Shown: positions 8,092-8,313 of the stretch, one piece after another | Layout: each line of letters starts with the position of its first letter | Numbering within the stretch: the first letter of the stretch is position 1 | Origin: a virus | DNA: 64,000 bases | Reading direction: 5' to 3' (one strand) | IMG/VR virus record: IMGVR_UViG_3300013093_000040 | Span: 6,519 to 70,518 of that record | Translations under genes and position numbers: made by a program | The notes under the pieces: generated by a model | Told to the model about the DNA's origin: nothing | The model's input: only the letters and a program-made list of their open reading frames with translations | The model's database searches: none

Positions 8092-8099
8092 AGGAAATT

Positions 8100-8132
8100 A
8101 AAAAAGCCCTGATTTTTTGAACCAGGGCTTTT
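8100..8132 (-). terminator. Intrinsic terminator (attenuator) immediately upstream of the tRNA array
   Basis: AAAAGCCCTGG-loop-TCAGGGCTTTTTT, ending 9 nt before tRNA-Phe. Confidence 0.85.
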
Positions 8133-8151
8133 ATGATTTTTTGGGTTACTT

Positions 8152-8301
8152 TTATCCCAAATCTATATCATTTAGTCCTGGACTTTTGTTCGGTATTGTT
8201 TTGGTATCCGGATTAATCGCGTTACTAAAGCAATAACCCACCAATAGCGGATTTCTTTGCTCCGATTGCCAATTAATTATATGAGATACTACGTGTTTCA
8301 T
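8152..8301 (-). CDS. Putative leader peptide (49 aa) MKHVVSHIINWQSEQRNPLLVGYCFSNAINPDTKTIPNKSPGLNDIDLG
   Basis: ATG 5 nt after the ATATTTAT motif; all 20 amino acids within codons 1-33; 3' end forms the antiterminator strand. Confidence 0.7.
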   Translation of the reverse strand: MKHVVSHIINWQSEQRNPLLVGYCFSNAINPDTKTIPNKSPGLNDIDLG

Positions 8302-8306
8302 TGTCT

Positions 8307-8313
8307 ATAAATA
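8307..8313 (-). promoter_or_regulatory. Phage promoter-like motif TATTTAT (representative copy)
   Basis: The same motif lies shortly upstream of about 20 genes (see findings). Confidence 0.6.

Follow-up and report, generated by a model that had tools for sequence, protein, structure and literature searches.

The window analyzed in this study is a stretch of 64,000 nucleotides (nt), positions 6,519 to 70,518 of the IMG/VR virus record IMGVR_UViG_3300013093_000040; it makes up 64 kilobases (kb) of the 70.5-kb record, with a completeness judged at about 45% and a G+C content of 35%. On its minus strand, an array of transfer RNA (tRNA) genes is headed by a leader unit with a promoter-like box, a short open reading frame (ORF), and an intrinsic terminator hairpin, followed by tRNA-Phe (Table 1). 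This leader unit, considered here as a candidate translation-sensing attenuator of the array, is the subject of the present analysis. An earlier note on this DNA had described a promoter motif (8307-8313), a 49-codon ORF (8301-8152), a terminator ending at 8100, a tRNA-Phe gene 9 nt later, and about 22 more tRNA-like genes. The ORF is present, the hairpin with its 5-nt loop and uridine (U) tract lies between the ORF and the array, and the motif proved to be part of a longer recurring box, CATATTTATA, at 8315-8306. The 9-nt spacing is likewise correct when counted from 8100. The tRNA count was too high, since ARAGORN predicted 19 genes in all, that is, 18 more, and Rfam 17. Every tRNA gene of the record lies within window positions 2227-8091 on the minus strand.

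Table 1. Features of the leader unit, its neighbors, and the tRNA array (window coordinates).
Feature	Coordinates	Strand	Remarks
Leader ORF	8152-8301	-	49 codons and TAA; MKHVVSHIINWQSEQRNPLLVGYCFSNAINPDTKTIPNKSPGLNDIDLG
Antiterminator 5' strand	8174-8181	-	CCAGGACU; codons 41-43
Shared strand	8122-8129	-	AGCCCUGG; pairs with 8181-8174 (antiterminator) or 8113-8106 (terminator)
Inner antiterminator helices	8133-8171	-	AUGAU (8171-8167)/AUCAU (8137-8133); UUUGGG (8161-8156)/CCCAAA (8145-8140); stop codon 8154-8152 apical
Intrinsic terminator hairpin	8102-8132	-	13 pairs, loop CAAAA, U tract to about 8097; -17.3 kcal/mol alone
tRNA-Phe(GAA), first array gene	8019-8091	-	10 nt after stem end
Conserved RNA helices within the ORF	8229-8270	-	codons about 11-25; RNAalifold consensus and pair counts
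Proximal promoter-like box	8306-8315	-	CATATTTATA; ends 4 nt before the ATG of the leader ORF
Distal promoter-like box	8353-8361	-	TATATTTAC; read from the sequence, putative function
Terminator hairpin and U tract of the upstream DUF6515 gene	8393-8453	-	-28.9 kcal/mol, z -4.2; 0/200 shuffles as stable
DUF6515 gene (Pfam)	8480-9013		upstream neighbor of the leader unit
Endonuclease-like ORF	8013-7360	-	217 amino acids, zinc-finger; directly after tRNA-Phe
DUF6717 ORF	6988-6635	-	in the array
DUF559/HNH-like ORF	6284-5823	-	DUF4031/DUF559-type; in the array
Rest of the array	2227-8018	-	18 further tRNAs, interrupted by ORFs

Competing RNA structures in the window

The 5' arm of the terminator can pair either with its own 3' arm or with a segment near the end of the leader ORF. 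When the RNA was folded without the terminator 3' arm, the minimum-free-energy structure consisted of exactly the three antiterminator helices that the earlier note had proposed, namely CCAGGACU/AGCCCUGG, AUGAU/AUCAU, and UUUGGG/CCCAAA. This nascent fold reached -15.8 kcal/mol compared with a mean of -6.9 kcal/mol in 300 shuffles of the tail (the last approximately 10 codons of the ORF), none of which was as low. The full-length window RNA preferred the terminator; in classical attenuators, the complete RNA likewise prefers the terminator.

Conservation of the leader module in related phages

Relatives were reached through a virion protein encoded downstream of the array, through a tRNA-Phe pattern, and through three rounds of peptide alignments covering viral and metagenome contigs. 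The virion protein led to a syntenic relative (L124) that has the same arrangement as the window, an ORF of 47 codons being followed by a terminator and then by the same tRNA-Phe. In total, the DNA of 15 loci was examined, comprising 12 distinct DNA variants. The earlier note had proposed comparing the regions upstream of tRNA arrays in related phages, and this comparison found the leader ORF and the terminator at all 15 loci, each time as a module of an ORF of 44-49 codons, an intrinsic terminator, tRNA-Phe, and a dense tRNA array, headed in most cases by the promoter-like box. The terminators (-13.8 to -17.3 kcal/mol, with a U tract) begin 19-28 nt after the stop codon, and tRNA-Phe starts 5-12 nt after the terminator stem in 12 variants and 28 nt after it in L165. 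Because a gap of 5-12 nt leaves no room for a promoter of its own, tRNA-Phe should depend on read-through of the terminator.

The array that follows the module has a conserved order (Phe-Lys-Trp-Arg-Cys-Pro-Ala-Val-Gly-Gln-Ser-His...), and that of L177 holds 21 tRNAs for 19 amino acids within 2.4 kb. At none of the 13 loci scanned did ARAGORN detect a tRNA in the flank upstream of the module. Two tRNA-like Rfam matches lie further upstream in the complete 179.6-kb genome G004, so that a position at the head of the array is the rule and not absolute. A profile search of 1.84 billion cluster representatives returned 25 matches at an expect value (E) ≤ 0.001, with lengths of 34-81 amino acids and all but two of them within 41-51. 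The phages that carry the module are a group of uncultured lake phages.

Viral contigs searched with the 49-residue peptide, the DUF6515 neighbor, and the DUF6717 ORF yielded no close relatives, and tblastn of a family member against GenBank phages gave nothing at E ≤ 1. Among bacterial and archaeal genomes, a scan retrieved a single match, of 16 residues on a Mucilaginibacter contig, which was regarded as chance. The peptide was absent from five more distantly related phages whose tRNA arrays are placed differently (0/5), and inspection upstream of the array in three of them (L118, L155, and L119) revealed no analogous leader. The upstream sequence of L118 ends in a tmRNA (transfer-messenger RNA)-like tag and a tRNA-like 3' end, that of L155 has a sigma-70-like promoter directly before the first tRNA and a tmRNA about 2.3 kb upstream, and nothing was identified upstream of the array of L119. 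Rfam 15 placed no model on the leader (E ≤ 1 for window positions 1-12000, gathering threshold for the whole window, and five relatives); its matches near the leader were restricted to tRNA-type models (one of them tRNA-Sec), tmRNA, and GOLLD.

Pairing between the ORF tail and the terminator arm

In every variant, a G+C-rich segment of 6-12 nt in the tail, ending 12-23 nt before the stop codon, complements the 5' arm of the terminator (Table 2). The motif CCAGG encodes Pro-Gly in one set of variants and spans Asn-Gln-Asp in another. Its retention in two reading frames means that the nucleotides, and not the residues, are conserved, and from this comparison the tail appears to be selected as RNA and not as peptide.

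Table 2. Complementary tail segments and terminator 5' arms.
Variant	Tail	Arm	Remarks
L169, L176, L180	CCAGGGC(U)	(A)GCCCUGG	
Window	CCAGGACU		one A-C mismatch with the arm
L181, L183	AACCAGGA	UCCUGGUU	
L193	ACCAGGACU	AGUCCUGGU	
L179	CGGGGC	GCCCCG	
L124, L158	GGGGCUU	AAGCCUC	
L197	UAGGGCUU	GAGCCCUG	

The tail/arm duplexes have energies of -9.5 to -18.2 kcal/mol and surpass 95% of 1000 dinucleotide shuffles in 10 of the 12 variants. In alignment A7, 75.9% of the tail/arm cells are paired compared with 18.5-53.7% when the partner is slid, and two compensatory pairs are present (AU in 8 and GC in 3; GC in 7 and AU in 3). Six cells are changed on both sides, compared with 2.0 in shuffles (1/500). 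The terminator stem, used as a positive control, has 87.7% of its cells paired and seven compensatory pairs.

When the terminator 3' arm was omitted, the RNA of all 12 variants folded into one long imperfect hairpin with the tail paired to the terminator 5' arm, the stop codon near the apex, and one or two inner helices beyond the tail/arm helix. At most 4.7% of 300 tail shuffles matched the energy of this nascent fold in any of the 12 variants, and none (0/300) did so in nine of them, including the window. Energies alone were used for this comparison, as the counts of tail-to-arm pairs in shuffled folds were uninformative (6 pairs in 20-67% of shuffles). The full-length minimum-energy fold retains the antiterminator in 6 of the 12 variants.

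Selection on the leader ORF

The start codon, the stop codon, and the open frame are kept in all 12 DNA variants, and insertions and deletions in the core are multiples of three. In a codon alignment of these variants, the core (codons 2-39) had a nonsynonymous divergence (pN) of 0.26 and a synonymous divergence (pS) of 0.49, with pN < pS in 64 of 66 pairs, whereas the tail had a pN of 0.51 and a pS of 0.49, with pN < pS in 33 of 66 pairs. Codons for Glu, Leu, Gly, Cys, and Pro show synonymous changes. These patterns indicate that the first approximately 38 codons are under purifying selection as a peptide and that the tail is not. Residue order is strongly conserved (W-Q-x-E-R-R-N-T-L-S-L-G-Y-C-F ... 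Q-G-K-P); among 31 sequences, M1, W11, and Y23 are invariant, and H7, G22, C24, F25, and P36 are at least 90% conserved.

Conserved RNA helices were also found inside the ORF. In the relatives, an outer helix pairs GGCAA (Trp-Gln codons) with UUGCU (Tyr-Cys-Phe codons) and encloses an inner hairpin, AACGU-N6-ACGUU (Glu-Arg-Arg-Asn-Thr-Leu codons), in which 91.7% of the cells are paired and one compensatory pair occurs. In the same region of the window, GGAGCAA/UUGCUUU fold around AAUCCGCU/GGUGGGUU. Because these helices hardly vary, conservation of the helix and conservation of the peptide cannot be told apart, and the helices might account for part of the conserved residue order.

Proposed attenuation mechanism and alternatives

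Taken together, these results point to a ribosome-mediated, translation-sensing transcription attenuator that gates the phage tRNA array, a reading to which we assign a probability of roughly 0.6. The promoter-like box would start a nearly leaderless transcript coding for the leader peptide of 44-49 codons. The tail would be transcribed first, and the unhindered nascent RNA would fold into the antiterminator hairpin with the stop codon near its tip; with this hairpin formed, RNA polymerase would read on into tRNA-Phe and the following tRNAs. A ribosome keeping pace with the polymerase would instead reach the end of the ORF and unwind the antiterminator, the 5' arm would pair with the 3' arm, and transcription would terminate. 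A ribosome at a stop codon covers roughly 15 nt on each side. In the present case, it would melt the inner helices and part the outer strands, yet leave free the terminator stem, which begins 19-28 nt further downstream. The tRNA genes would thus be turned on when the first approximately 37 codons are translated slowly or not at all and turned down when translation is fast, and the net effect would be a negative feedback between translation capacity and tRNA supply.

From the sequences, we infer in vivo translation of the ORF, a terminator and an antiterminator function of the two hairpins, the direction of the switch given here, and its control over tRNAs beyond tRNA-Phe. The hairpin of codons 11-25 shares no strand with the antiterminator. 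The leader hairpin of trp pauses RNA polymerase until the ribosome comes, and by analogy the ORF-internal hairpin may be a pause or synchronizing hairpin that holds the polymerase until the ribosome arrives.

Several observations speak against this attenuator. No anti-antiterminator was found in the leader, so that the switch, unlike that of trp, would be on by default without translation. The leader contains no runs of regulatory codons, most amino acids occurring once to three times, and the conserved residue order suggests a sequence-specific role of the peptide that the model does not need. The outer helix of the window is the weakest of the family (7/8 pairs, -9.5 kcal/mol, 165 of 1000 shuffles as good), the duplex of L181 likewise falls short of significance (83/1000 shuffles as good), and that of L186 contains a mismatch inside the helix. 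When cognate and foreign partners were compared, the tails of L124 and L158 paired better with foreign arms (-18.5) than with their own (-10.9), and the window tail paired better with the arm of L193 than with its own. The signal is therefore largely one of conserved complementarity and not of independent covariation, and the relatedness of the 12 variants reduces it to few independent events. In addition, promoter-like boxes lie inside the window array at 5802-5793 and 3919-3910 and may drive some tRNAs independently, so that gating of every downstream tRNA is not established.

The conserved residue order raises an alternative in which the attenuator is kept and the peptide is a nascent-chain arrest or pausing peptide. 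The ribosome would stall near the conserved Pro (G-K-P), possibly depending on a ligand or factor, and this pause, not amino acid supply, would decide whether the tail is covered when the polymerase reaches the terminator. This alternative is supported by a residue order conserved well beyond composition and by the point at which conservation ends, namely the Pro, which is present in 34 of 35 sequences and beyond which the tail is neutral. In most variants, about 5-9 nt separate the Pro codon from the downstream tail segment, which would be covered by a ribosome held at this codon. Aromatic residues stand 11-14 positions ahead of the Pro, a layout reminiscent of TnaC and SecM. The peptide is also predicted to lack a fold, as AlphaFold2 gave a predicted local distance difference test score (pLDDT) of 52 with 7 sequences and 56 with 31 sequences and at most one short helical turn.

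On the other side, the peptide shows no similarity to known arrest families in NCBIfam or Pfam. The window peptide had no match in Pfam, PHROGs, or NCBIfam, the 31 family members compared with profiles gave just two chance-level matches (E about 0.04-0.06), and the ESM Atlas gave no usable match. Furthermore, the window peptide lacks Q-G-K and has T-K-T-I-P instead, and the ORF-internal helices could explain part of the residue order without any function of the peptide. Because termination would be the favored outcome whether the ribosome stalls at the Pro or reaches the stop codon, a stall alone offers no obvious switch. We regard an arrest peptide as unlikely. The conserved order and the Pro at the end of the selected region fit nascent-chain pausing at least as well as a pure composition sensor.

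Purifying selection on the core and a widespread family would equally be expected of a functional protein, and the ORF could be a plain gene for a small phage protein that has a promoter and a terminator of its own and lies before the array by chance. The array would then be transcribed by leaky read-through or from other promoters, and the complementarity of tail and arm would be incidental or serve the stability of the messenger RNA 3' end. The preference of the full-length window RNA for the terminator, the bare window duplex that is no better than shuffles, and the unclean comparison of cognate and foreign arms all agree with this explanation. However, it does not explain why CCAGG or covarying equivalents occur in two frames at a fixed distance from the stop codon, why the antiterminator fold is far more stable than shuffles and carries the stop codon at its apex in 12 of 12 variants, or why the terminator is immediately followed by tRNA-Phe at 15 of 15 loci. 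The lack of a predicted fold also argues against an ordinary protein, and we consider this explanation improbable, to about the same degree as an arrest peptide.

An untranslated structured RNA with the frame as a by-product, whether a processing site of a tRNA precursor or an antiterminator controlled by a protein or ligand, would suit the helices inside the ORF, a long imperfect hairpin that could be a nuclease substrate, and the large structured RNAs (tmRNA and GOLLD) that neighbor the module in relatives, but it is very improbable given the start, stop, and open frame in 12/12 variants, the core indels in multiples of three, pN < pS in 64/66 pairs, and the lack of an Rfam match even at E ≤ 1.

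Amino acid and codon composition of the leader peptide

As the earlier note had pointed out, each of the 20 amino acids is represented among the first 33 residues (MKHVVSHIINWQSEQRNPLLVGYCFSNAINPDT), and W, C, Y, F, E, R, and A occur there a single time. It had also proposed computing the chance of such a composition, and this is 0.00044 for independent, identically distributed draws from the composition of the long ORFs of the phage. The same property was seen in 3 of 4872 random stop-free ORFs with the base composition of the leader, in 1 of 398 window ORFs of at least 33 amino acids (the leader ORF itself), and in 0 of 14,813 33-residue windows of long ORFs.

The property extends to the family. 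Of the 35 distinct family peptides, 29 have the full set of 20 amino acids and the other 6 have 19; in 28 of the 29, the set is complete by residue 30-38, ahead of the tail. Random peptides of the pooled family composition would give 1.1 of 35, and shuffles within alignment columns gave 17.9 ± 2.5 with a maximum of 27 in 1000 (17.8 ± 2.7 in a repeat of 2000). Of the 23 representatives of 50%-identity clusters, 17 contain all 20 compared with 10.0 ± 2.2 (P = 0.002); these tests are post hoc and ignore phylogeny.

The excess results mainly from Ala and Val, which are mobile yet almost never lost. Ala occurs elsewhere in 14 of 14 sequences that lack it in its usual column compared with 4 of 9 that have it there, and the corresponding values for Val are 13 of 14 and 4 of 9. 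Glu is most often missing and is compensated in just 2 of 5 cases. Clear relocation is confined to Ala and Val, and the pooled table of home columns is confounded across amino acids, so its P value was not used. The retention of all 20 amino acids beyond the level of column shuffles is treated here as suggestive.

NCG codons (N, any base) number 3-5 in the leader ORF at 14 of the 15 loci and 2 in L197, compared with 28 per 1000 in phage genes. Several variants have exactly one each of ACG, UCG, GCG, and CCG. Thr is always encoded by ACG and the first Arg almost always by CGU, a pattern that overlaps in part with the inner hairpin. The codon adaptation of the leader (0.695) is ordinary in relation to that of gene windows (0.715 ± 0.082); a general rare-codon reading was dropped for this reason, and the NCG enrichment alone remains.

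A possible, although doubtful, extension of the attenuator model is that the leader acts as a general decoding sensor that retains codons for each of the 20 amino acids, including four rare NCG codons, within its first approximately 37 codons. If starvation, host shut-off, or anticodon nucleases left any tRNA scarce or cleaved, the ribosome would fall behind and the attenuator would open. The near-complete tRNA set of the phage would be made only on need, as an on-demand counter-defense and a homeostat of translation capacity. The strong conservation of residue order, which overlaps in part with the ORF-internal helices, argues against a pure composition sensor. Of the interpretation given in the earlier note, a leader ORF with an antiterminator competing against the terminator before the array is supported by conservation, selection, and pairing, whereas the sensor of all 20 amino acids and the counter-defense against anticodon nucleases go beyond what these data show.

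Comparison with known regulatory systems

In the enterobacterial attenuators (trp, his, leu, thr, ilvGMEDA, and pheA), the regulated genes are preceded by a short translated leader ORF and an intrinsic terminator. The module described here resembles those of the trp and his type in that its antiterminator uses the 5' arm of the terminator and overlaps the end of the ORF, in that a slow ribosome is predicted to cause read-through, and in having a hairpin within the leader that could pause the polymerase, as in trp. It differs from the trp type in several respects. The regulated genes would be phage tRNAs and not biosynthetic enzymes, and in place of a codon run for one amino acid or a small number of them, all 20 are represented. 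The leader exceeds trpL and hisL in length by a factor of 3-4 and has a conserved peptide sequence, and the predicted default without translation is read-through, as an anti-antiterminator was not found. In pheM-pheST, the Phe-codon-rich leader pheM controls a synthetase. The module would share with it an attenuator placed over a component of the decoding machinery and a feedback on translation capacity; unlike pheM, the leader has a single Phe codon and stands before tRNA genes. The pheL leaders are a subject of at least part of PMC3082878.

With TnaC, SecM, ErmCL, and SpeFL, the leader may share a conserved short peptide with aromatic residues and a Pro, and a downstream RNA structure that depends on ribosome position, although it has no sequence similarity to them. 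Those peptides act via Rho, exposure of a ribosome-binding site, or a ligand, and not via an intrinsic terminator before tRNAs. Expression of the tRNA operon of phage T4 reportedly depends, according to work of the 1980s, on reading through termination signals upstream of or within the cluster; to our knowledge, no leader ORF or sensing of translation has been described for it. T-box riboswitches bind uncharged tRNA directly, contain no ORF, and control synthetase or amino acid genes. The module would have in common with them the sensing of the tRNA pool and a switch between terminator and antiterminator, and Rfam gave no T-box match at the leader region.

A literature search at the level of listings and abstracts found no published description of the leader element or its peptide. 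The parts of an attenuator (ORF, terminator, and competing antiterminator), present without codon runs, before phage tRNAs, and unmatched by any Rfam family, protein family, or cultured phage of the GenBank collection, would therefore amount to a new form of leader-peptide attenuator. Phage tRNA arrays have been discussed, at least in parts of PMC11555353, PMC12482277, and PMC13056530, as an escape from host tRNA cleavage and shut-off. The regulation of these arrays is almost unexplored, and a conserved attenuator at the array head, if confirmed, would be the first regulatory device for phage tRNA genes found in our literature search. It would also be a case of attenuation that reads overall translation speed and not a single amino acid. 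As an element of approximately 220 nt, it could provide a handle on whether phages sense the decoding state of the host, as well as a natural reporter of tRNA depletion. If the presence of all 20 amino acids proves to be selected, this would be a new logic for leader peptides.

Promoter-like boxes

The box before the leader ORF is one of 34 matches in the window, 25 of which are on the coding strand. Of the 63 long minus-strand ORFs, 14 have the form (C/G/T)ATATTTAT(A) in the 60 nt ahead of them, compared with 2.7% of random positions. It is usually found, as (G/T/C)ATATTTAT(A), 16-18 nt before start codons, and the ORFs concerned include those for the tail sheath and virion proteins (examples on the minus strand: 56772-56781, 55711-55720, 39637-39646, 29842-29851, 25743-25752, and 24778-24787). 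This box probably represents a promoter class of the phage. In most relatives examined, the leader ORF is preceded by this box or a close variant of it, L193 having a different box (AAAATTTGG) instead, and a second copy occurs 25-45 nt upstream of the proximal box in several relatives, as it does in the window. Since the proximal box ends so close to the ATG, the leader messenger RNA may be leaderless. Shine-Dalgarno-like sequences precede just 3 of the 63 long ORFs of the window, which would fit a host that does not use them, such as a member of the Bacteroidota.

Genomic context and composition of the tRNA array

The minus strand carries nearly all long ORFs of the window, whose products include a tail sheath, a DNA polymerase, a GroEL-like chaperonin, a ribonucleotide reductase, and virion proteins. 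Upstream of the leader unit, the terminator of the DUF6515 gene is predicted to insulate the unit from upstream transcription. The position of this gene is taken in some relatives by structured RNAs that the window lacks: GOLLD RNA (RF02032, 236.7 bits) lies immediately before the module in L169 (2003-2416), and tmRNA (RF00023) in L163 (1813-2311) and L179 (1652-2146), the latter a complete 179.6-kb phage. In L124, an ORF that reads by eye like a GIY-YIG endonuclease (1223-1828) lies between a tmRNA-like 3' end and the leader.

The ORFs that interrupt the window array at 7360-8013 and 5823-6284 look like mobile endonucleases. A blastn search of GenBank phages with window positions 7300-9100 gave a sole match of 107 nt inside the endonuclease-like ORF (7444-7550), 77% identical to LR756501 and LR756503, which are uncultured "huge phage" records of 735 kb. 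Such a match fits a mobile gene common to unrelated phages.

The window array covers just 13 amino acids and those of relatives nearly all; compared with L163 and L177, the block Trp-Arg(ACG)-Cys-Pro-Ala-Val that normally follows tRNA-Lys is missing from it. The spacer between tRNA-Phe and tRNA-Lys of many relatives (L170, L176, L186, L193, and L180; L124, 2440-2475) contains AUGAAACGAAAAC-like repeats and, just before the next tRNA, a small hairpin (CCCUCU-GAAGCA-AGAGGG), which may be a processing signal. Unusual anticodons were observed in tRNA-Ile(UAU) and tRNA-Leu(AAG) of the window (3745-3818 and 5168-5240, minus strand) and in tRNA-Asp(AUC) of L181 (4604-4677), and L140 has a tRNA-like gene with a CUA anticodon.

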